Shown here piece after piece: positions 6,136-59,227 of a stretch of DNA of 64,000 nt. The notes under the pieces were generated by a model that made no database searches, was not told the origin of the DNA, and saw only the letters and a list, made by a program, of their open reading frames with translations. The DNA is from Patescibacteria group bacterium. GTDB lineage: Bacteria > Patescibacteriota > Patescibacteriia > PEXW01. The stretch covers positions 22,389-86,388 of the forward strand of contig JBBTRK010000005.1 of assembly GCA_038065235.1 (NCBI GenBank), read 5' to 3'. Positions within the stretch are counted from its first letter, which is position 1. Every line of letters starts with the position of its first letter. A program made the translations under genes and the position numbers.

Positions 6136-6176
6136 TTGTCCTGAAGGCCATTTTTCTGTATACTTAAAGCCTATTT

Positions 6177-7415
6177 ATGTCACGTGAAGCTCCACTCGTA
6201 GGCCTTGATCTTGGTTCGACGACCGTCCGCGTCGTTGTTGCGACCCCGACCGAAGGTGGTTCGGAACTTCAGATTCTCGGCGTCGGGGAGCACAGTGCAG
6301 ACGGCATTAGTAAGGGCGCAATCACGAGCATCGAAGATGCAATCTCGTCAATTTCTGGCGCACTGGAGCAAGCCGAGCGCATGACCGGCATCCCCGTGAC
6401 ACATGCGTACGTCGGTATCAACGGCACCCACATTTCGTCGCAAGAAGTGCACGGCGTCGTTGCCGTAGCCAAGGCTGATGGCGAGATACGCGAAGAAGAC
6501 GTCGAACGCGTCATCGAAGCCTCCCAGACAATGGTGAGCCCATCAAATGTGGAAATCCTTCACGTTATCCCGCGTACCTTCACCGTTGATAACCAGAAAG
6601 GTGTCAAAGACCCCATCGGCATGTCCGGTATCCGGCTAGAAGTTGACGCGCAGGTCATTCAGGGGCTCACCGCCCAGGTGAAGAACCTCACGAAGTGCGT
6701 GTACCGCACCGGGGTGGAAATTGACGAGTTGGTTCTGGGCGTCCTGGCTGCTTCGGAAGCCGTCCTCACCAAGCGTCAGAAAGAAATTGGCGTTGCCCTG
6801 TTAAATATCGGTGCTTCCACGTCTAGTCTCATGGTGTTCGAAGAGGGCGATGTATTGCATGCTGGTATTATTCCGGTTGGGGCTGGACATATCACGAACG
6901 ATATTGCCATAGGCCTGCGAACCTCTATTGATGTTGCGGAGCGGGTAAAGATAGAATTTGGTACAGCCATGCCAGAAGAGGTTGGTAAGCGCGATGAAAT
7001 AAACCTTGCGGACATAGATCCCAAGGAATCGGGTGTCGTCTCGCGCAAACACGTCGCCGAGATTATTGAAGCTCGGGTCGCCGAAATCTTCAGCATGGTC
7101 GATAAAGAACTTCAGAAAGTCGATCGGTCTGGATTGTTGCCGGCTGGGATCGTGCTCATCGGCGGAGGCGCTAAGCTCTCTGGCATCATCGAAGTGGCTA
7201 AGCGTGAGTTCCGCTTGCCGGCCGCCGTTGGGAACCCACTCAACCTCATTACCGCAATCGACAAAGTGCACGAACCCGAGTACGCTACGGCAGTCGGCCT
7301 CGCTGCGTGGGGCGCCGCCCTTCAGCATGGCGGGGGCACACGCACATCGAAGTTTTCGACGGTGAACGTTGTTCTTGGTAAGCTACGTGGGTGGGTGAAG
7401 AACATTACTTCCTAA
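6177..7415 (+). CDS. ftsA: Cell division protein FtsA.
   Basis: Actin-like ATPase signature ([24 protein letters not shown]) directly upstream of ftsZ. Confidence 0.93.
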
Positions 7416-9666: not shown

Positions 9667-12600
9667 ATGCCGCACGTCACCCTCCGCGATCCTGCTACCC
9701 AAACTGCCACGGGCAACTATCCCGCGCATGGTTTGCGTATTACGCGTCGTCATACAACCGTGGGGGTGGACCCGCTCGAGCAGCTGACTTATGAGAAGCG
9801 TTCCTCGGTCATCAAGAATCCGGACGGCCGCATCGTCTACGAGATCACCGACGTGGAAGTCCCCACCAGCTGGTCGCAGGTTGCCACAGATATTTTGGCG
9901 CAAAAGTACTTCCGCAAGGCGGGTGTGCCGGTGCTCGACGAGCAGGGGCAGCCGATGCTGGATGGACAGGGGAACGTTGTCACCGGCTCGGAGAAGAGCG
10001 CTAGGCAAGTCGTTCGGCGCATGACCATGTGCTGGCGCTGGTGGGGTGAGCAGTATGGCTACTTCGCCTCGCCCGAGGATGCGCAGGCGTACCAAGATGA
10101 AATGGCGTACTTCCTCATCCACCAGATGAGCGCGCCGAATTCCCCGCAGTGGTTCAACACCGGCCTGCACACGGCCTACGGCATCACTGGCCGACCGCAG
10201 GGGCACTACTACGTCGTCCCCGAAACTGGCGAAGTGGTGAAGTCCGAGGATGCCTACACCCACCCCCAGCCGCACGCGTGCTTCATCCAGAGTGTCTCGG
10301 ACGACCTGGTTGGTGAAGGTGGCATCTTTGACCTTATGACCCGCGAAGCGCGACTCTTCAAGTTTGGCTCTGGCACGGGCAGCAACTTCTCGAGCCTTCG
10401 TGGTCGGGGTGAAAAGCTCGGTGGCGGTGGGACGTCGTCGGGCATGATGTCGTTCCTGAACGTCTTCGACCGTGCCGCGGGCGCCATTAAGAGCGGCGGC
10501 ACCACGCGGCGGGCAGCCAAGATGGTCATTGTGAACGTCGACCATCCCGACGTGGAAGAGTTTATCAGCTGGAAGGTTAAGGAGGAGCAGAAGGTGGCAG
10601 ACCTCGTCACCGGCAGCAAACTTAACGCCAAATATCTGAACGCAATCATGACCACGGCCCATGCCGAAGGGGCCACCGCCCTCACCCAGTCACCCGCGCT
10701 CAAGGCGCTTGTGCGCAAAGCCGTCGCTCACGAGGTGCCGCTTAACTACATTGCCCGCGCACTGGACTTGGTTCGCCAAGGCAAGACGTCAATCGATTTC
10801 CACATCCTCGACACGCATTTCGAAGGCGACGCGTACAATACCGTTTCGGGCCAGAACAGCAACAACACCGTGCGCGTCACCAACGAGTACATGGACGCGG
10901 TGCGAGTGAACGCCCCATGGAACCTCACTGCGCGCGTCACTGGCGATGTCGTGAAGACCATCCCGGCGCGTGAGCTGTGGGATACAATTGGTTACGCCGC
11001 GTGGTCCTGCGCTGACCCAGGCTTGCAATTCGACACGACGATCAATGAGTGGCACACCTGCCCGGTGGACGGCCGCATCAATGGTTCGAACCCATGCAGC
11101 GAGTACATGTTCCTGGATGACACGGCCTGCAACCTCGCTTCTATGAACTTGGCCAAGTACCTCGACGCCGATACCGGCACCTTCGACGTGGATAGCTACC
11201 GTCACAGCATTCGGCTGTGGACCGTCACGCTCGAGCTCTCGGTGCTCATGGCACAGTTCCCAGGCAAGGAGATTGCGCGCCGCAGCTACGCCTACCGTAC
11301 ACTCGGCTTGGGGTACGCCAACCTCGGTACCGTGCTCATGACCATGGGCATTCCGTACGACTCTGACGAAGCCCGCGCCATTGCCGGCAGCCTCACCGCC
11401 ATTATGACCGGCGAGTCCTACGCCACCAGCGCCGAAGTGGCCAGCGTCGTCGGGGCATTCCCAGCCTACGAGCGGAACAAGCGCCACATGCTCCGTGTTA
11501 TCCGCAACCACCGTCGCGCCGCCTACAATGCACCCGCCGATGAGTACGAAGGCCTCTCCATCACCCCGCAGGGCATCAACCACAGTGCTGTCCCGCCCTA
11601 CCTGGGTGACGCCGCCAAGCTGGCCTGGGATCGAGCTATTACCCTGGGCGAGCAGCACGGTTTCCGGAACGCACAGACCACAGTTATTGCACCCACTGGC
11701 ACGATTGGCCTCATCATGGATTGTGACACCACCGGCATCGAGCCAGACTTCGCACTCGTGAAGTTCAAGAAGCTCGCTGGCGGGGGATTCTTCAAGATCG
11801 TGAACCAGTCCATGGACAAAGCCTTGCGCCATTTGGGTTACACCGAGCCGCAGGTGAGAGACATTGAGAATTTCGCCAAGGGTCACGGTACGCTCGTGGG
11901 TTGCCCTGCCATAAACCCGCAAGAGCTCCGTGAGAAAGGTTTCACCGACGCTGACCTAGCAAAGGTCGAGGCCAACCTGAAGACTGCCTTTGACCTCCGT
12001 TTCGCTTTCACCCCTTTCGCGCTCGGGGCCGAAGCACTGACGCGCGCTGGCCTCACCGACGTACAGGTTGCAGACCGTGAGCTTAACGTCCTGGGTGCGC
12101 TCGGCTTCACCGATAGGCAGGTCTCGGAAGCCAACGAGTACGTCTGTGGCACCATGACCATCGAAGGTGCTCCACACCTGAAGCCCGAGCACCTGCCGGT
12201 GTTTGACTGCGCCAACCGCTGTGGTGCCAAGGGGAAGCGCTTCATCGCCTACGACGCGCACCTGCAGATGATGGCGGCAGCCCAGCCATTCATTTCTGGC
12301 GCAATTTCCAAGACCATCAACATGCCTAACGAGGCCACGCTCGTCGACATCGAGCAGGCGTACCAGAAGAGCTGGAAGCACATGCTGAAGGCCGTGGCTC
12401 TCTACCGCGACGGCTCCAAGCTCTCCCAGCCGCTCAACACCATTGCCGGTCTGGATGACCTGGGTCAAGCCGAGACCACCGCGGAAGAGACTAACGAGCA
12501 GGTCACGCCCAAGCAGGTGAATGATGCTACGGCTGCGCAAGCTGCCGGTCAGGCCATCCGCCATGCCTTGCCGAACAAACGCCACGGCTTCGTGCAGAAG

Positions 12601-13179
12601 GCGTACGTCGGCGGGCACAAAGTCTACCTCCGCACCGGCGAGTACGATAACGGCCAGATCGGCGAGATCTTCGTGGACATGTACAAAGAGGGGACTGCCT
12701 ACCGCAGTCTACTCTCTATGTTCGCCATTTCTATTTCCAAAGGTTTGCAGTACGGCATTCCGCTAGAGGAGTACGTCGACACCTTCACCTACACGCGTTT
12801 CGAGCCGGCTGGCACGGTCCAGGGTCACGAGAACGTGAAGATGGCCACATCCATCCTAGACTACGTGTTTCGCGTGTTGGGCTTCGAGTACCTAGGCCGC
12901 ACAGACCTGGTGCACATTAAGCCCCAACTGAAAGTCGATGAGAAAGAACTCCATGTTCCGGCACCGATCCAGCAAGCGACGCTACCCATGAATGTCCAGA
13001 CGACCGCGCAGCGAGATGCCACGAAGAGCAACGTGAGCTTCGGCATGCAGGACAAGGACGAAGCGCGCCAGCAGGGCTTCACCGGCGACCAGTGCGTGGC
13101 CTGCGGGAGCATGAAGATGAAGCGCAACGGCACCTGCATCCTCTGCCTGGACTGCGGCGAGACAACGGGGTGTAGCTAG
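9667..13179 (+). CDS. nrdJ: Class II adenosylcobalamin-dependent ribonucleotide reductase (NrdJ-like, long form).
   Basis: Active-site region SNPCSEYMFLDDTACNLASMNL. C-terminal CxxC...CxxC zinc finger (CVACGS...CILCLDCG). ~1170 aa is typical of long NrdJ. Confidence 0.82.
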   Translation: MPHVTLRDPATQTATGNYPAHGLRITRRHTTVGVDPLEQLTYEKRSSVIKNPDGRIVYEITDVEVPTSWSQVATDILAQKYFRKAGVPVLDEQGQPMLDGQGNVVTGSEKSARQVVRRMTMCWRWWGEQYGYFASPEDAQAYQDEMAYFLIHQMSAPNSPQWFNTGLHTAYGITGRPQGHYYVVPETGEVVKSEDAYTHPQPHACFIQSVSDDLVGEGGIFDLMTREARLFKFGSGTGSNFSSLRGRGEKLGGGGTSSGMMSFLNVFDRAAGAIKSGGTTRRAAKMVIVNVDHPDVEEFISWKVKEEQKVADLVTGSKLNAKYLNAIMTTAHAEGATALTQSPALKALVRKAVAHEVPLNYIARALDLVRQGKTSIDFHILDTHFEGDAYNTVSGQNSNNTVRVTNEYMDAVRVNAPWNLTARVTGDVVKTIPARELWDTIGYAAWSCADPGLQFDTTINEWHTCPVDGRINGSNPCSEYMFLDDTACNLASMNLAKYLDADTGTFDVDSYRHSIRLWTVTLELSVLMAQFPGKEIARRSYAYRTLGLGYANLGTVLMTMGIPYDSDEARAIAGSLTAIMTGESYATSAEVASVVGAFPAYERNKRHMLRVIRNHRRAAYNAPADEYEGLSITPQGINHSAVPPYLGDAAKLAWDRAITLGEQHGFRNAQTTVIAPTGTIGLIMDCDTTGIEPDFALVKFKKLAGGGFFKIVNQSMDKALRHLGYTEPQVRDIENFAKGHGTLVGCPAINPQELREKGFTDADLAKVEANLKTAFDLRFAFTPFALGAEALTRAGLTDVQVADRELNVLGALGFTDRQVSEANEYVCGTMTIEGAPHLKPEHLPVFDCANRCGAKGKRFIAYDAHLQMMAAAQPFISGAISKTINMPNEATLVDIEQAYQKSWKHMLKAVALYRDGSKLSQPLNTIAGLDDLGQAETTAEETNEQVTPKQVNDATAAQAAGQAIRHALPNKRHGFVQKAYVGGHKVYLRTGEYDNGQIGEIFVDMYKEGTAYRSLLSMFAISISKGLQYGIPLEEYVDTFTYTRFEPAGTVQGHENVKMATSILDYVFRVLGFEYLGRTDLVHIKPQLKVDEKELHVPAPIQQATLPMNVQTTAQRDATKSNVSFGMQDKDEARQQGFTGDQCVACGSMKMKRNGTCILCLDCGETTGCS

Positions 13180-13297
13180 ATGTAACGACAACTTCCCCCT
13201 GCCCCCTCCTTGGTAAGGAGGGGGTTTCGTGTAGACCAGCTTCCTCCCTCCCCTTGAGAAGGGGAGGGTTGGGGTGGAGTTGGAGTATACTCGGGGT

Positions 13298-13660
13298 ATG
13301 ACTCGCCTCATCAACCGAAGCACGGAAAAAGCAAAGCGCCGGACGTTGCGAAATGCGATGCCAAAAGCGGAATATATCCTCTGGCAGCAGTTGCGTCGAA
13401 AGCAAATTGCAGGAGTGACGTTTCGCCGTCAGGTAAGTGTTGGGAAGTACGTCGTGGATTTCTACTGCTCCGCAAGGCGATTGGCAATTGAAGTAGATGG
13501 CGAAACACATATTGGAAAAGAAGCGGAGGCATATGACGCTGAGCGACAAAAATATCTAGAAGACCTAGGTATTCGCGTTATCCGTTTCTGGAATACTGAT
13601 GTGTATAAAAATTTGGCGGGTGTGATTGATGAGGTACTCCACGTTGTTAGAAAGATATGA
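13298..13660 (+). CDS. DUF559 endonuclease-domain protein (Vsr-like fold).
   Basis: YVVDFYC, LAIEVDGETH, RQKYLEDLGIRVIRFWNTDV. Start chosen at the internal ATG; ATG at 13274 is also possible. Confidence 0.7.
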   Translation: MTRLINRSTEKAKRRTLRNAMPKAEYILWQQLRRKQIAGVTFRRQVSVGKYVVDFYCSARRLAIEVDGETHIGKEAEAYDAERQKYLEDLGIRVIRFWNTDVYKNLAGVIDEVLHVVRKI

Positions 13661-31753: not shown

Positions 31754-31829
31754 TGGCGGACCCGAAGGGAATCGAACCCTCGATCTTCTCCGTGACAGGG
31801 AGACGTGTTAACCGCTACACTACGGGTCC
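31754..31829 (-). tRNA. tRNA-Asp (GUC), CCA-encoded.
   Basis: Reverse complement GGACCCGTAGTGTAGCGGTTAACACGTCTCCCTGTCACGGAGAAGATCGAGGGTTCGATTCCCTTCGGGTCCGCCA. Anticodon loop CTGTCAC. Confidence 0.93.
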
Positions 31830-35622: not shown

Positions 35623-36026
35623 TGGTGGAGATGAGGGGTCTTGCGCCCCTGTCTAGAATGCGGCGGGCAGGTGGTCTACAGGTGTAGGGCGTTCACGGGT
35701 GTTTCGATTGTGCCGCATGGAGCGCCCAAGCTCGGCAGAATCTAGTGGAGGTGATTTTCGGTTGCGCTGTTACCACACCCACGCAACCTACGCCTGAATT
35801 ATGACACTCGCAATTCCCGCGCCAGGCCGCGGGGCGAATGGGTTATCGGTTTTTAAGCGAGAACCGGAGCAAAGCTGGGCATTGCGAACGCGTTAGCGAA
35901 CGCAGTCTTCACTTTGCTGACAATGTTATTGGCAGTTGTCAATTTGTCCAGCAGTTTCACGCCGTGCCGAACGAGGGCGACCCGCACACTTACCGTAATG
36001 CAATCTATCAACTAATGGACATCCCC
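35623..36026 (-). ncRNA. ssrA: tmRNA (ssrA).
   Basis: Lies immediately downstream of smpB. The 5' GGGGAUG pairs with 3' CAUCUCC-A-CCA to give a 7-bp acceptor stem with a G3-U70 wobble (the AlaRS identity element). A T-arm-like GGGG-CGCAAGA-CCCC sits before the 3' end. An internal tag frame reads ...ANAFAMPSFAPVLA with TAA at 35853-35855. Confidence 0.6.
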
Positions 36027-48016: not shown

Positions 48017-48047
48017 CTGAAACCTTTTTGGTTCGGGTTCCCCCCAA

Positions 48048-48127
48048 CCCCCTTGCCGACCGTAGCTTACTTGCCGTCCGAAGCTTTAGCGTAGGAAGGG
48101 GCGCAGGCTGGGGGCAGAGGGGTGGGT
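48048..48127. repeat. Family A repeat, copy 3.
   Basis: ttccccccaacccccttgccgaccgtagctt...ggctgggggcagaggggtggg. Confidence 0.7.
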
Positions 48128-48164: not shown

Positions 48165-48655
48165 ATGACCCTATTGCCCGCGGAGACGATTAGGGTCAGA
48201 ATGTTATTTTTTTGGGTTATGTAAAAACCGCTCGGGGATTGAGCGGTTTTGAGTAATACGGTATTTGGGTTACTTTCACATTAGCCGGCGAAAGCTTGGA
48301 TGGCCGCAGCGCAGGCTGCAATAATGAGCATAATGGTTACGGAAATTGCAGAGCAAACAAAAAGGATCAGGGTTACGTGCAAGAGTTTTGCCCGATAGTA
48401 CTTCCCAGCGCTTTCGGCAGTAAAAAGTAAGGCCCAGCTTATCACGACTCCAGCGCAGCTAATGGGGATTAAGAACAGCCACGCCCACCAATAAGCAGAT
48501 ATAAAATTTATCAATGTTGCCTCCGTTGGTTTTCTCAAACCTACACCCCCAGCTTGAGTAGTCAATAGCTTGCACGTACAATACAGGTATGAACCTCATG
48601 TCATCTTTGAATAGTGAACAAAAACAGGCGGTTACGCATGCGTCCGGCCCGCTGT
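48165..48655. repeat. Left copy of a 491-bp perfect direct repeat.
   Basis: Identical to 53606-54096 (atgaccctattgcccgcggagacg ... gcgtccggcccgct). Confidence 0.9.
48281..48514 (-). CDS. Small 2-TM membrane protein, left duplicate copy. Probable TTG start after GGAGG; the ORF track extends it to 48565.
   Basis: MINFISAYWWAWLFLIPIS... A highly hydrophobic ~77 aa. Confidence 0.5.
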   Translation of the reverse strand: MINFISAYWWAWLFLIPISCAGVVISWALLFTAESAGKYYRAKLLHVTLILFVCSAISVTIMLIIAACAAAIQAFAG

Positions 48656-50468: not shown

Positions 50469-50522
50469 CACCAACATTCGTTGTTTGATGACCAGCACCC
50501 TAAAAAGTGCTGGTTTTCTTTT

Positions 50523-50633
50523 TCCCCCAACCCCCTTGCCGTCCGTAGCTTTCTTGCCGACCGAAGCCTTGGCGAAGGTCGGAGCGTAGGACGGTGGCGT
50601 AGGTCGGTGCGCCCCGAGGGAGGGGGCAGCGGC
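50523..50633. repeat. Family A repeat, expanded copy with internal cgtaggWcgg sub-repeats.
   Basis: tttcccccaacccccttgccgtccgtagctttcttgccgaccgaagc...gagggagggggcagcggccc. Confidence 0.7.
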
Positions 50634-53605: not shown

Positions 53606-54096
53606 TATGACCCTATTGCCCGCGGAGACGATTAGGGTCAGAATGTTATTTTTTTGGGTTATGTAAAAACCGCTCGGGGATTGAGCGGTTTTGAGTAATA
53701 CGGTATTTGGGTTACTTTCACATTAGCCGGCGAAAGCTTGGATGGCCGCAGCGCAGGCTGCAATAATGAGCATAATGGTTACGGAAATTGCAGAGCAAAC
53801 AAAAAGGATCAGGGTTACGTGCAAGAGTTTTGCCCGATAGTACTTCCCAGCGCTTTCGGCAGTAAAAAGTAAGGCCCAGCTTATCACGACTCCAGCGCAG
53901 CTAATGGGGATTAAGAACAGCCACGCCCACCAATAAGCAGATATAAAATTTATCAATGTTGCCTCCGTTGGTTTTCTCAAACCTACACCCCCAGCTTGAG
54001 TAGTCAATAGCTTGCACGTACAATACAGGTATGAACCTCATGTCATCTTTGAATAGTGAACAAAAACAGGCGGTTACGCATGCGTCCGGCCCGCTC
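53606..54096. repeat. Right copy of the 491-bp direct repeat. It carries the genuine 5' end of the helicase gene.
   Basis: See the left copy. Confidence 0.9.
53723..53956 (-). CDS. Small 2-TM membrane protein, right duplicate copy.
   Basis: Identical to the 48281..48514 copy. Confidence 0.5.
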   Translation of the reverse strand: MINFISAYWWAWLFLIPISCAGVVISWALLFTAESAGKYYRAKLLHVTLILFVCSAISVTIMLIIAACAAAIQAFAG

Positions 54097-57000
54097 CTTA
54101 TCGTTGCCGGCGCGGGGACGGGCAAGACCACCGTCGTCACCCAGCGCATTGCCTGGCTCATTGCCGAAAAGAAGATTAAGCCTGACCACATCCTCGGGTT
54201 AACGTTCACGGACAAAGCCGCCGGGGAACTGGAAGAGCGCGTGGACAAGCTGCTGCCCATGGGCTACGTGGATTTGTGGGTGAGCACGTTCCACAGCTTC
54301 TGCGAGCGCATCCTGCGGGATCACGCCCTGGACATTGGCCTTAGCCCCGACTTCACCTTGCTGGATGAGACGGACCAGGCCATTCTGATGCGCGAGCACC
54401 TGGAGCAATTCGACTTGAGCTACTACCGGCCGTTGGGCAACCCGACGAAGTTCGTGTCCAGCCTCATCAAGCACTTCAGCCGGTGCAAGGATGAAGCAAT
54501 TCGGCCAGAGGAATATCTGAAATACGCAGAAAAGTTACGGCTGGATTTGGATCAGGTGCATGGGCGCAAAAAGCATTCGCAGGATGAAGACAAGGATGAA
54601 ATCGTTGAAGTAGACAGGATAAACGAAATTGCGAACGCGTACCACACCTACCAGCAGCTCCTGTTCCAGAAGGGGAGCCTGGACTTCGGCGACCTCATCA
54701 CGCAGACGCTCTATCTCTTCCAGCAGCGGCCCAAGATTCTGGAGCGCTACCGCAAGCAGTTCGAGTACATCCTGGTGGACGAATTCCAGGACACGAACTG
54801 GGCGCAGTACGAGCTGGTGAAGTTGCTCGCTGCCCCGCAGAACAACCTGACCGTGGTGGGGGATGATGACCAGAGTATCTACAAGTTCCGCGGCGCCAGC
54901 GTGGCCAACATTCTGGCGTTCAAGACGGACTTCCCCAAAGCCAAAGAAGTGGTGCTCACCCAGAACTACCGCAGCACGCAAAACATTCTGGACTTGGCCT
55001 ACGACTTCATCCAGGCGAACAACCCGAATAGGTTAGAGGTGCAGCTTGGTAATACACCCCCCCTTACCCCCCCTTCGAAAGGGGGGGAGGGTGAGGGAGC
55101 CAAGAAGCGTGGGCGACGGAAAAATTCCGCACCCCAATTATCTCCCTCTTCACAAGGGGGAGAGGGAGGGGGTCGAGACAAGGCCTTTGCGATTAGCAAA
55201 AAGCTTTTTGCTCAAGAGCAAGGCACCGGTACAATAGAGTATTCCATTGCACCGATTCTGGAGCAGGAAGCCACTGGCGCAGTGGAGAAAATCCTGGAGC
55301 TCAAGAAGAAGAAAGGCACCAGCTACAACGATTTTGCCATTCTGGTGCGCGCCAATGATTCGGCGCAGCCCTTCATCCAGCGCCTGAAAGCCGCGGACGT
55401 GCCGTTCCAGTTCGTGGCCACGGCCGGGCTGTACCGCCAACCCATTGTGCTGGACATCCTCAACTACCTCAAGCTGCTAGATAACTTCCACGAGAGCGCC
55501 AGCTTGTACCGCATGCTCACCCTCCCATCCCTGTGCATTCCCTTGCAGGATGTGATGAGCATGATGGCTACAGCGCGGCGGGAGACCAAGTCGCTGTACG
55601 AAGTGTCCAAGAACGTCCGTGCGCTCACCGGGATGCAACCCGAGACAATCGCGGCTGTGGAAAAACTTCATGGGTGGCTCGAAGCGCACGGCCAACTGGC
55701 GCGCACGCAGCCCGTGGGTGAAGTGGCCTTGAAGTTCTTGGAAGACTCGGGTTTGATGAAAGACCTCACCAGCTCCACAGACGCTGACCACTTGGAAGTG
55801 GTGAACTACATGAACCAGCTGTTCCAAGTGTTCCAGAGCTTCCAGATGCGGCACGAAGAACCGACGGTGAAGAATTTTTTGCACGAATTAGCTTTCGCCC
55901 AAGACGCGGGCGATTCTGGAAGTCTGCGGCCGCCCGAATGGGAGCAAGGCCCAGAGGCTGTGAAGCTCATGACCATTCACAGCGCCAAAGGCTTGGAATT
56001 CCCGTACGTGTTCATTGCGAACTTGGTTGATAAGAGATTCCCCACAATCGAGCGCCGCGACGCCATTGAACTACCCGATGATCTCGTCAGAGAGAAACTT
56101 CCCGAAGGGGACTGGCACTTGCAAGAAGAGCGACGCCTCATGTATGTGGCCATCACCCGCGCCAAGCAAGGCGTGTTCTTCACGGCCGCGGAAGACTACG
56201 GCGGCACGCGCAAGAAAAAGCCCTCGCGCTTCATTGAAGAGCTTGGCCTCAAAGCCAAACCGTTCAAATTAAAGGGTGGATTGTTGGATAAGCAAAAGGC
56301 GCCTGCACGTCAAGAAAATGACGCCGAATTACTGCGTAAAGCACTGCCCCCGTACTTCAGCTTCACGCAGTTGAAGGCGTTTGAGAAATGCCCTAAGCAG
56401 TACAAGTACGCCCACTTGCTGAAGATCCCGGTGCCAGGGCATGCCACGTTGAGCTTTGGCCAAACCATTCATAACACCTTGCTCAACTTCTTCAAGCTGG
56501 CACGCGAGCGCGGCATGGCCGGTCAGGCTGATTTGTTCGGCAAGAAAGACCAGGCCACCAGCGGCCCGCCTGTTACCTGGGCCGAGCTGCAGCAAATTTA
56601 CCAAGCCAACTGGCAAGACATGTGGTACAGCAGCATGGCGCAGAAGACGGAGTACAAGCACCGCGGCGTAAAGTTCCTCAAAAACTTCTACGATTCTCTC
56701 CCAACACCGTGGCCACAACCAACCGAGCTGGAAAAAGGTTTTACCATTGTCATCAACGGCCATAAAGTAAAAGGCAAGATTGACCGCATTGACCCCAGCA
56801 CTGGCGGCATAGAAATTATTGACTACAAGACCAGCGAGAAACCGCCAGCAGAAAACAAAGCCGATTTGGAACAGCTGCACATTTACGCTATGGCCGCGCG
56901 CGAAGCGCTTGGACTCAATCCGGTGAAGCTCACCTTCATTTACCTGGCCGCCGAAAAACCCTTTAGCTACCCAATTGACGAAAAGGCCATTGAGAAAACC

Positions 57001-57123
57001 CGCGCCGAGATAGGGGAGACCATTGAGGCAATTTTGAAAAGTGACTTTGTTGCCACGCCGAGCAAGTTCACCTGCGTATCCTGCGATTTTCGAAATATCT
57101 GCGAGGATAGGTATAGAGGGTAA
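54031..57123 (+). CDS. UvrD/PcrA-like superfamily-1 helicase fused to a C-terminal RecB-family (PD-(D/E)xK, Cys-cluster) nuclease domain.
   Basis: Walker A AGAGTGKT, DEFQDTN, and the helicase motifs. C-terminal IIDYKTS and CVSCDFRNICEDR. Confidence 0.9.
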   Translation: MNLMSSLNSEQKQAVTHASGPLLIVAGAGTGKTTVVTQRIAWLIAEKKIKPDHILGLTFTDKAAGELEERVDKLLPMGYVDLWVSTFHSFCERILRDHALDIGLSPDFTLLDETDQAILMREHLEQFDLSYYRPLGNPTKFVSSLIKHFSRCKDEAIRPEEYLKYAEKLRLDLDQVHGRKKHSQDEDKDEIVEVDRINEIANAYHTYQQLLFQKGSLDFGDLITQTLYLFQQRPKILERYRKQFEYILVDEFQDTNWAQYELVKLLAAPQNNLTVVGDDDQSIYKFRGASVANILAFKTDFPKAKEVVLTQNYRSTQNILDLAYDFIQANNPNRLEVQLGNTPPLTPPSKGGEGEGAKKRGRRKNSAPQLSPSSQGGEGGGRDKAFAISKKLFAQEQGTGTIEYSIAPILEQEATGAVEKILELKKKKGTSYNDFAILVRANDSAQPFIQRLKAADVPFQFVATAGLYRQPIVLDILNYLKLLDNFHESASLYRMLTLPSLCIPLQDVMSMMATARRETKSLYEVSKNVRALTGMQPETIAAVEKLHGWLEAHGQLARTQPVGEVALKFLEDSGLMKDLTSSTDADHLEVVNYMNQLFQVFQSFQMRHEEPTVKNFLHELAFAQDAGDSGSLRPPEWEQGPEAVKLMTIHSAKGLEFPYVFIANLVDKRFPTIERRDAIELPDDLVREKLPEGDWHLQEERRLMYVAITRAKQGVFFTAAEDYGGTRKKKPSRFIEELGLKAKPFKLKGGLLDKQKAPARQENDAELLRKALPPYFSFTQLKAFEKCPKQYKYAHLLKIPVPGHATLSFGQTIHNTLLNFFKLARERGMAGQADLFGKKDQATSGPPVTWAELQQIYQANWQDMWYSSMAQKTEYKHRGVKFLKNFYDSLPTPWPQPTELEKGFTIVINGHKVKGKIDRIDPSTGGIEIIDYKTSEKPPAENKADLEQLHIYAMAAREALGLNPVKLTFIYLAAEKPFSYPIDEKAIEKTRAEIGETIEAILKSDFVATPSKFTCVSCDFRNICEDRYRG
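55055..55172 (+). repeat. In-frame GC-rich palindromic insertion within the helicase ORF.
   Basis: CCCCCCC-TTCGAAA-GGGGGGG and tccctct...agaggga hairpins. Encodes the low-complexity stretch NTPPLTPPSKGGEGEGAKKRGRRKNSAPQLSPSSQGGEGGG. Confidence 0.6.
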
Positions 57124-57200
57124 TTAAAGTTGTCATGCCGGACTCGATCCGGCATCTTGCCGCAAGGCCCCGGGTCTGACGCCCGGGGCGACATAAATGA

Positions 57201-57749
57201 GTGAAGCTTATGCAAGAAGAACTTTTCGACGCCTGCGACGAACAAGGCAACCCAAAGGGTGAGCGGGTAACCCGTGCAGACGCGCACACCAAAGGAATTT
57301 GGCACCACACCGTGCACCTGTACCTGGTACGGAAGGTGGGGGATGACTTCGCGTTCCTCATGCACCTTCGAGCAAAGACCAAAGACTTGAACCCGGACAA
57401 GTGGGACACGCGCTTCGGCGGACACGTGCTTGCGGGTATGAGCATCGCCGATACCGCTCGCCGAGAACTCAAAGAAGAAGTTGGTTTGAACTTGGAGTAC
57501 TATAAAATAGTTGAAGGTGTTGTAACGAAACGTGACAATTTTCCAAATAGGGAATTTACTCACACATTTTTTGTTGAGGTTCCAGAAGATGTCCCAGTAC
57601 AATTCGAAGACGGTGAAGTGCAGCGCGTGGAGTGGATGACGGCAAAGGAAATTATTGCTTCAATGCAAACCAAGTCTCGCCCGTGGGCCGGGAGTCTGCA
57701 AGGCTTCCAAGAAACGCTGAAGGTTTTGCAGGAGAGGTGGAAGGGGTAG
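57201..57749 (+). CDS. NUDIX hydrolase.
   Basis: Nudix box GGHVLAGMSIADTARRELKEEVGL. Confidence 0.8.
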   Translation: MKLMQEELFDACDEQGNPKGERVTRADAHTKGIWHHTVHLYLVRKVGDDFAFLMHLRAKTKDLNPDKWDTRFGGHVLAGMSIADTARRELKEEVGLNLEYYKIVEGVVTKRDNFPNREFTHTFFVEVPEDVPVQFEDGEVQRVEWMTAKEIIASMQTKSRPWAGSLQGFQETLKVLQERWKG

Positions 57750-58190
57750 TGTTATTTGTCATGCCGGAGAGCACATCCGGCATCTTGTAGTTGCACTGAA
57801 GTGCGACCTAATGTTTTCCAGTTGATGGTGTTCCATCACGTGAATGCCACCCTTTCTTGGTGGCAAGAAAGGATGTAGCCCAAAGAAGCCAGCAGGGGGA
57901 ATCGATTCGCACACGAGAAGCACGCCATCCCATTTGTTGGATGGGCTCAGCGATTCCCCCTGCACCCGAATGCTAAACAAGTTTTCTCTTTTCCCTTTGA
58001 TCAACCGTGATTCGATGACATGAACCGTATAAACGTTTGGTCGTTCACCCGTATAACCCAGAGATCCCGGATCGGAGTCCGGGATGACAGTAAATGAGCA
58101 TTGCGTTGTACTATAATTGACACTATTACAGGAGGAGTATACTAGGGCGACATGAGCGTACGTGCTGGGTGTGGCTAACCTTCCCGCACT

Positions 58191-59082: not shown

Positions 59083-59227
59083 TTGCCCCTCTCCCCAGCC
59101 CTCTCCCGCGAAGGGGAGAGGGAGATTTTTTATACCCTCTCCTCCAGCAGGAGAGGGTGGCCGAAGGCCGGGAGAGGAGGATTGCGAGAAATAATTCGAG
59201 TGGAAAAATGAGAAGAAATATGGTATA

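Follow-up and report, generated by a model that had tools for sequence, protein, structure and literature searches.

Our analysis concerns a stretch of 64,000 nucleotides (the window throughout) from contig JBBTRK010000005.1 of an uncultured Patescibacteria group bacterium of the Hainich groundwater metagenomes, and within it a GC-rich palindromic element of 118 nt (55055-55172) that lies inside the coding sequence of a helicase. The host gene (54031-57123, plus strand) has an intact open reading frame (ORF) and encodes a protein of 1030 aa that joins a UvrD/PcrA-type superfamily 1 (SF1) helicase to a C-terminal PD-(D/E)XK nuclease, the latter being Cas4-like with a Cys-cluster. Pfam assigns UvrD-helicase to residues 7-302, UvrD_C to 307-721 and PDDEXK_1 to 776-1025. 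The closest solved structures are PcrA, UvrD and Rep, and the homologues of the protein carry Patescibacteria names. The element falls into a hypervariable loop-coding segment (55048-55191, plus strand; codons 340-387) that accounts for 48 aa of the enzyme. Translated, the element reads GNTPPLTPPSKGGEGEGAKKRGRRKNSAPQLSPSSQGGEGGGRDKAFA, flanked by NPNRLEVQL and ISKKL, in agreement with an initial reading made from the letters of the window only (the sequence-only reading), which had noted a low-complexity Pro/Gly/Glu/Lys stretch between helicase blocks. This copy of the element is open in three of its six reading frames.

The element is built from two hairpins and a spacer, with C-rich and G-rich outer arms around them. 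Unit 1 (55055-55097) comprises CACCCCCCCTTA, the core hairpin CCCCCCCTT-CGA-AAGGGGGGG (55067-55087) and AGGGTGAGGG, and encodes the peptide TPPLTPPSKGGEGEG. The spacer (55098-55129) contains a small GGAA-AAA-TTCC hairpin at 55118-55128, and unit 2 (55130-55172) comprises CACCCCAATTAT, the core hairpin TCTCCCTCTT-CAC-AAGGGGGAGA (55141-55163) and GGGAGGGGG. The two units are 43-nt direct repeats with 72% identity; both have the hairpin at the centre, a 5' arm of C and T only and a 3' arm of G and A only. Perfect hairpins had been announced for this ORF, and two hairpin units are indeed present, the first of them perfect, but the second is not. Hairpin 1 had been drawn as a 7-bp stem with a 7-nt loop, whereas its stem really has 9 bp and its loop 3 nt; it can be extended to imperfect 20-nt arms (55057-55096) that are 75% complementary. 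Hairpin 2 can pair in two ways, with 10 pairs of which one is T-G or with a perfect stem of 8 bp around an 11-nt loop. The two ends of the element (55059-55073 and 55158-55172) are themselves 73% complementary, so that the 118 nt can close on themselves. When folded as RNA, positions 55050-55176 reach -68.4 kcal/mol (z = -4.75), and none of 200 dinucleotide shuffles was as stable. Among all 120-nt segments of the gene the one at the element has the lowest energy (-62.5 kcal/mol, against a mean of -33.7 and a standard deviation of 8.2), with a GC-corrected z of -3.8. The G-rich arms read G7AG3TGAG3, which suggests a putative G-quadruplex potential. Neither of the in-gene hairpins is followed by a T-run, and a terminator scan lists nothing at 55055-55172; hence transcription should read through the element without stopping early at an intrinsic terminator.

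In an alignment of 114 orthologs the loop consists of a single residue in 33 proteins and of a conserved 15 aa in 22, with an overall range of 1-75 aa; the 48 aa of the window make it the third longest. The sequence-only reading had proposed an insertion relative to orthologs, and by this alignment the segment is extra sequence. Compared with close orthologs, the 600-nt blocks on either side of the loop show 87-93% identity and no more than 6 gap columns, against 15-58% identity and 29-120 gap columns for the loop. In an AlphaFold2 model computed from the same 114-ortholog alignment (mean predicted local distance difference test score, pLDDT, 83.5; predicted template modelling score, pTM, 0.76) residues 344-384 form the only long stretch with pLDDT < 50, between a helix at 335-341 and a strand at 401-409. 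The insert is thus predicted to occupy a surface-type, intrinsically disordered loop. This much fits the earlier idea of an in-frame landing in a surface loop, but a single clean landing is not what the comparison of relatives described below indicates. The loop had further been expected in domain 2B. A phmmer alignment to PcrA stops at query residue 337 (PcrA 309) and restarts at query residue 412 (PcrA 331), and the published boundaries of domain 2A in UvrD are 281-377 and 551-647. Based on this break and on the published PcrA/UvrD boundaries, the alignment places the insert at the start of domain 2A (PcrA ~309-331), in its first loop after motif IV and ~35 residues past the point where the two Pfam helicase halves meet.

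Homopolymer-rich palindromes are prone to error and the window belongs to a short-read metagenome contig with ~18x coverage, which could speak for an assembly or sequencing artefact such as a chimeric join or a poly-G/poly-C error; an assembly artefact had been named as the alternative from the outset. However, four proteins from separate assemblies contain the identical insert. One of them (P0001; ENA assembly ERZ1292622, contig Hain_H52..., 90 kb) is 100% identical to the window helicase, two others derive from an NCBI metagenome-assembled genome with contigs up to 177 kb (P0121) and from Logan/ENA (P0127), and the fourth (P0123), from a variant strain, differs by two substitutions outside the insert. 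In addition, an ortholog from JGI sample 3300037810 (L003) carries a homologous insert that has diverged and has a shorter spacer, yet is still in frame and keeps both hairpins. All helicase motifs and the reading frame of the host ORF are intact as well. Since several assemblies share the identical insert and another sample holds a diverged in-frame homologue, an artefact is excluded, with a residual probability that we regard as negligible.

A finer view of the loop comes from close orthologs, namely six with 94-98.5% identity outside the variable loops and one more (P0005) with ~90%. Among these we found four distinct loop contents. The two-hairpin element is present in the window and in L003, where both hairpins persist although the spacer is diverged and shorter by 21 nt. 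In L004 the loop holds unit 1 with a different 27-nt hairpin (CCAATGACC...) nested between the core and the 3' flank, and it keeps the layout of an outer stem enclosing hairpins that is also seen in the intergenic elements discussed below. An unrelated 81-nt palindrome of AGCC-NNAA octamers and their inverted copy fills the loop of L005 and L006, and L001 has only 8 residues. The proteins of L001 and L004 are 98.5% identical; P0004 and P0002 differ by 1.5% outside the loop and have loops of 8 and 36 residues, respectively. Because orthologs that are 94-98% identical elsewhere differ in loop content, the helicase loop is a turnover hotspot. The RNA folds of the loops in L003, L004, L005 and L006 are all significant (z -2.6 to -4.1). 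The octamer palindrome is probably the ancestral loop state, as it is common to L005 and the earliest-branching L006; in L212, which is more distantly related, the left arm alone is present, in the form of AGCCGTAA-like octamer repeats. Where the spacer of the window begins (GGGAGCCAAGAAGCGT, which overlaps the last part of unit 1), it is similar to the first 17 nt of the L005 loop (GGGAGCCAGAAAGCCGT) and may be a relic of an older loop of the octamer type. Neither the nested hairpin of L004 nor the octamer arms of L005 recur elsewhere in the sampled loci. A contig scan for additional close orthologs gave, among the matches listed, only relatives with 50% identity or less.

Such turnover could also come about without any incoming element. 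An unconstrained, indel-prone linker might grow and shrink in place, by slippage or by inverted duplication with template switching, so that palindromes would form in it de novo, and its likeness to intergenic hairpins would then be compositional convergence. The wide range of loop lengths over the 114 orthologs is consistent with this, and so are the octamer palindrome of L005 and L006 with its lone left arm in L212 and the lack of a target duplication, to which we return below. The difference between P0004 and P0002 fits an easy deletion of palindromes. What has to be weighed against local growth is whether the design of the element recurs elsewhere, and this is indeed the case. The pattern YCYCCYCTTNNNAAGRGGRGR, with up to two mismatches, matches the window at exactly four sites (13203, 13247, 55067 and 55142), with 0.07 expected by chance. 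The first two belong to an intergenic sibling of the element, which we call type A (13190-13280; z -2.8). It consists of an outer stem around two hairpins (13202-13224 and 13246-13268) with a CTT-NNN-AAG apex, and both sites have the same hairpin style, in which a C/T-rich arm leads to this apex and a G/A-rich arm follows. Poly-C/poly-G arms and matching flanks recur there together with the apex. Type A begins ~11 nt past the stop codon of a ribonucleotide reductase gene (9667-13179), its first hairpin lying 23 nt past it, and in L008 and L009 a copy related to type A stands immediately 3' of the helicase. The reductase (plus strand) is of class II, B12-dependent, with a TSCPD domain according to Pfam, and a DUF559 endonuclease-like ORF (13274-13660, plus strand) directly follows the double hairpin.

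A second intergenic relative, type C (59083-59185; z -5.2), has an outer stem CCCCTCTCCCC / GGGAGAGGAGG and hairpins at 59099-59122, 59134-59158 and 59159-59169. Its place is directly 3' of dciA, where it is also conserved in L001, L003 and L005. Its first hairpin (59099-59122) precedes a T-run and ranks first among the terminator-like sites of the region; from its sequence it looks like an intrinsic terminator. The hairpin pair at 59099-59158 shares the C-first/G-last style, but its loops and apex differ. Thus, of the two intergenic hairpin pairs that the sequence-only reading had singled out, the one within 13190-13280 has the same hairpin style as the element, whereas the one at 59091-59200 is related but of a distinct type. 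In total, the 64-kb window contains three loci with six hairpins. Type A and type C both start within ~11 nt of the upstream stop codons, with their first hairpins 17-23 nt downstream, and their outer stems are clearer than that of the 118-nt element. L005 and L009 also have type C between pheT and gyrB, in the opposite orientation, and in the window, L001 and L004 the pheT-gyrB spacer is empty, with a length of 14 nt. Because type C occupies non-orthologous sites that are empty in sister genomes, the elements are dispersed, and close relatives have gained or lost them. The remaining strong hairpins of the window are nearly all at the 3' ends of genes as well, with unrelated sequences. An 83-nt repeat (48038-48120 and 50521-50603; copies 81% identical, C-rich at the 5' end and G-rich at the 3' end, each just 3' of a plus-strand ORF) was considered as a fourth type of element and rejected, since it folds no better than its shuffles.

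The same module also occurs in many metagenome contigs. A scan of metagenome contigs for CCYCCCCTTNNNAAGGGGRGG returned at least 120 stretches. Among the matches listed, 108 of 139 are preceded by CCCC or followed by GGGG at a distance of up to 16 nt, and the recurring design is ACCCCCCC, a few nucleotides, the core hairpin, a few nucleotides and GGGGGGGT, either single or doubled. Several of these copies are genic, far inside long ORFs. Pfam domains that span the module, again among the matches listed, are Aminotran_5 (L113), the AcrB family (L159), Glyco_transf_9 (a heptosyltransferase, L118), LplA-B_cat (lipoyl ligase, L106) and NB-ARC (L098), and in three further matches (L127, L116 and L171) the module sits in an inter-domain linker. 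The copy in the AcrB-family gene contains a 21-mer identical to hairpin 1 of the window. The Aminotran_5 example is on a Patescibacteria contig from the same aquifer, and there the module lies in a variable loop that is missing from many orthologs. The module is translated in three frames, as PPLxKGG, NPPLSRGG and SPPSKGGE, and hence the conserved entity is the DNA or RNA palindrome and not a peptide motif. Two matches contain arrays of the core hairpin (L107, 13654-13890, four copies with 72-nt spacing; L131, 32-290, three copies with 119-nt spacing), which could be CRISPR-like or tandem repeats and not dispersed elements. A design that recurs within the window, 3' of the helicase in related genomes and across numerous unrelated contigs and genes can hardly be explained by independent growth, and we therefore regard a purely local origin of the helicase insert as unlikely.

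The explanation that we favour is that the element is probably a two-unit copy of a dispersed palindromic repeat, similar to repetitive extragenic palindromic (REP) sequences or to the Rickettsia palindromic element (RPE), which a permissive loop of domain 2A tolerates as a passenger. It would have arrived by transposition or copy-insertion and not by growth in place, and it would be neutral for the enzyme. Each unit is a long imperfect palindrome, the plan of which is a C-rich flank, a C-rich arm running up to CTT, a 3-nt loop, AAG with a G-rich arm and a G-rich flank. Since the arms are homopyrimidine and homopurine, stop codons are possible only at loops and junctions, and with stops confined in this way a copy of 3n length that lands in a loop can be read through. 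Selection would retain only those copies in loops whose net length is 3n, and in the helicase the element is read as a Pro/Gly/Lys/Glu-rich linker of 48 residues. Copies outside genes, just past stop codons, would be potential transcript-end hairpins, and we infer that they terminate or stabilise transcripts.

A number of results weigh against this explanation. An alignment of filled and short loops shows no target-site duplication at the borders of the element, a feature of MITEs (miniature transposable elements with inverted repeats), and no clean pair of an empty and a filled site was found for this copy. A BLAST search (E < 1e-3) for a second full 118-nt copy links the element only to the orthologous insert of L003, and its likeness to the other copies rests on short hairpins of low complexity. 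The pattern used for the metagenome scan is short, so that some chance matches are expected (~6e-11 per site by our rough estimate). The octamer palindrome of L005 and L006 looks as if it had been generated locally, and with L212 carrying the left arm alone, in-place growth or inverted duplication does occur in the helicase loop. As to a mobilising enzyme, neither a Y1 or REP-associated tyrosine transposase (RAYT) gene nor any other transposase gene is present within the 64-kb window, and none of these hairpins is near the RayT-like loci of L212 and L213.

Three relatives do have RayT-like genes in the syntenic region, upstream of the helicase by a few kb (L005, 3402-3956; L212, 10001-10594; L213, 1304-1840). 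The one in L005 matches NF047646 with 77.6 bits, against a cutoff of 80, and the GC-rich inverted repeat flanking it is a different one. No Y1 genes were seen near the metagenome matches listed. With no such gene in the window, another repeat at the L005 gene and no hairpins at the other two, a link between the element and a RAYT is unsupported. L005 also contains an IS200-type insertion sequence (6165-6569) with matching end hairpins GCCCCACGTGCT(C/T)GGCACTGGGG, which are unrelated to the helicase element, and no insertion sequence with ends matching the element was found in the loci sampled.

It might also be possible that the hairpins are kept because they do something, as a cis-element that slows the ribosome once the N-terminal RecA-like half is out, in favour of co-translational folding, protects or processes the mRNA, or forms a G-quadruplex or i-motif. 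The element is the strongest structure in the gene, both hairpins have outlasted the spacer loss and the divergence between the window and L003, and the loops of four close orthologs are all structured. The position of the site just beyond the boundary of the Pfam helicase halves would suit such a function, and hairpin inserts in a different loop, that of domain 1B, reach z values of about -3.3 in L008 and L010. On the other hand, 33 of the 114 orthologs manage with a one-residue loop, and in the 98.5%-identical sister pair the hairpin content is present in one member and nearly absent in the other. Moreover, the domain 2A inserts of L008 and L010 are unstructured (z 0.1 and -0.8), which also rules out the notion that every insert in this loop is a hairpin. 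With Rfam 15 at the gathering score the window matches only a transfer-messenger RNA (tmRNA) and one tRNA, and at permissive E-values only sub-threshold noise (miRNA, whalefall-1) appears at the element, with noise likewise in 13 related loci. A retained cis-function is therefore improbable in our view. The domain 1B loop is a second in-frame insert site (L008, 2177-2270; L009, 10523-10616; L010, 10517-10618), where the inserts contain the hairpins CGCCCCG...CGGGGCG and GCTCCAC...GTGGAGC, with z values of -3.4 in L008, -1.5 in L009 and -3.3 in L010; the corresponding position of the window (54547-54615) has no insert.

As a dispersed repeat read in frame, the helicase insert would by analogy be of a kind known from Rickettsia and from REPs in the repair genes of other bacteria. 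REPs are short GC-rich palindromes that mostly lie just 3' of genes and occasionally wholly within ORFs, where single copies, dimers or clusters of them add 20-80 residues to the protein; their hosts include UvrD/Rep helicase, recBCD and uvrABC genes, which are often the sole REP-tagged genes of a genome, and in the recB gene of Xanthomonas different REPs occur at about one site (Di Nocera et al. 2013, PMC3733652). Similarly, the UvrD-type helicase-nuclease is the only hairpin-carrying gene in the ~250 kb that we sampled from the clade. In contrast to the intragenic REPs, the arms here are homopyrimidine and homopurine, the host belongs to the Patescibacteria, and at least three unrelated inserts share one loop among close orthologs. 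The units are also like REPs in being short (20-40 bp), GC-rich, imperfect palindromes mostly near gene 3' ends. However, none of the six stems has GTAG/CTAC or CGTC/GACG next to it (a single GTAG is found 7 nt 3' of 13224), and no cognate RAYT flanked by this hairpin is present in the window, L005, L212 or L213. REPINs are hairpin doublets that are able to form a larger structure and are dispersed through mobilisation by a RAYT (Bertels and Rainey 2011, PMC3116915). Our elements resemble them in their doublets, their dispersed copies, their presence or absence between relatives and the RayT-like genes of sister genomes, but the two helicase units are direct and not inverted repeats.

The RPE is a palindrome of ~100-150 bp that is inserted in frame into housekeeping genes in a fold-compatible manner and is also found in non-coding DNA, and each RPE family encodes a conserved peptide (PMC10969869, summarising Ogata et al. 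2000, 2002). With 118 nt, in frame and in a disordered loop, the helicase element is similar; unlike the RPE, its module is read in three frames, the units are much shorter (21-45 nt) and GC-rich, and they are not confined to one genus. The intergenic copies, a few to ~20 nt past stop codons and with a T-run after 59099-59122, recall intrinsic terminators and SPRITE, a terminator-like miniature element of Streptococcus pneumoniae (PMC10969869), but the in-gene hairpins have no T-run and most other terminator-like hairpins of the window are unrelated in sequence. With regard to the terminal inverted repeats of MITEs, the outer arms of the helicase element are complementary at 73%. The literature that could be searched, itself incomplete, yielded no account of elements like these from Patescibacteria. 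In heterocystous cyanobacteria, Elhai et al. in 2008 reportedly described possibly mobile repeats of ~20 nt that nest in one another and sometimes lie in genes.

A broader and more tentative possibility, to which we give less than even chances, is that the copies belong to an unclassified, phylum-spanning superfamily of ultra-short palindromic modules of the form ACCCCCCC - 2 to 4 nt - CCCCCCCTT NNN AAGGGGGGG - 2 to 6 nt - GGGGGGGT. If so, such modules would occur single or doubled and with C-to-T and G-to-A variants, they would lack a GTAG/CGTC tag and a linked RAYT, and they would be spread over Patescibacteria and other bacteria. Their largely stop-free arms would allow them to colonise protein loops repeatedly and in any frame (PPLxKGG, PPLxRGG, PPxKGGE), with certain loops, such as those of this helicase and of a NifS-like desulfurase, as recurrent sites of landing and turnover, and by nesting in one another they would build multi-hairpin intergenic elements.

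The locus provides a clean, independently assembled example of 'selfish' or repeat DNA that is read as protein in a conserved repair enzyme, and this in Patescibacteria (candidate phyla radiation, CPR), whose tiny genomes might not be expected to have room for such repeats. Four loop contents among orthologs with 94-98% identity give an unusually fine view of the rate of loop turnover, and the comparison suggests that palindromes are both acquired and built in place. The case also agrees with a bias of intragenic REPs towards genes of the UvrD/RecB type that has been reported but not explained. In practical terms, inserts of this kind lengthen proteins, give rise to low-complexity 'PPL..KGG' annotations and can mislead homology-based domain boundaries.

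A perfect direct repeat of 489 bp (48165-48653 and 53607-54095) is present on the 5' side of the helicase gene, the second copy of which spans the helicase start codon (54031) and the first 65 nt of the gene; the first copy corresponds to a duplicated 5' end of the helicase that degenerates afterwards. The 4953 bp between the copies have a GC content of 0.46, falling to 0.39 at 52-54 kb, and contain small ORFs for a HicA-like toxin and for proteins of 328, 264 and 248 aa, the latter two without a match in a Pfam scan. The segment looks like an islet integrated at the 5' end of the helicase, or is possibly an assembly duplication. Relatives have different defence-type genes at the corresponding spot (SMODS in L001, TIR_2 in L004, AAA_15/21 in L006, HicA in L005). 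On the other side of the helicase, a NUDIX gene (57201-57749) is flanked by near-identical hairpins (57135-57155 and 57761-57783) of the form ATGCCGGA-(5 to 7 nt)-TCCGGCAT. It is present in the window and L005 and absent from L001, L003, L004 and L006; L004 has a single hairpin of this type in the corresponding spacer. From this distribution the NUDIX gene may have been gained or lost like a cassette. Elsewhere, the window contains a tmRNA (35623-36026, minus strand) and a tRNA-Asp(GTC) gene (31754-31829, minus strand).

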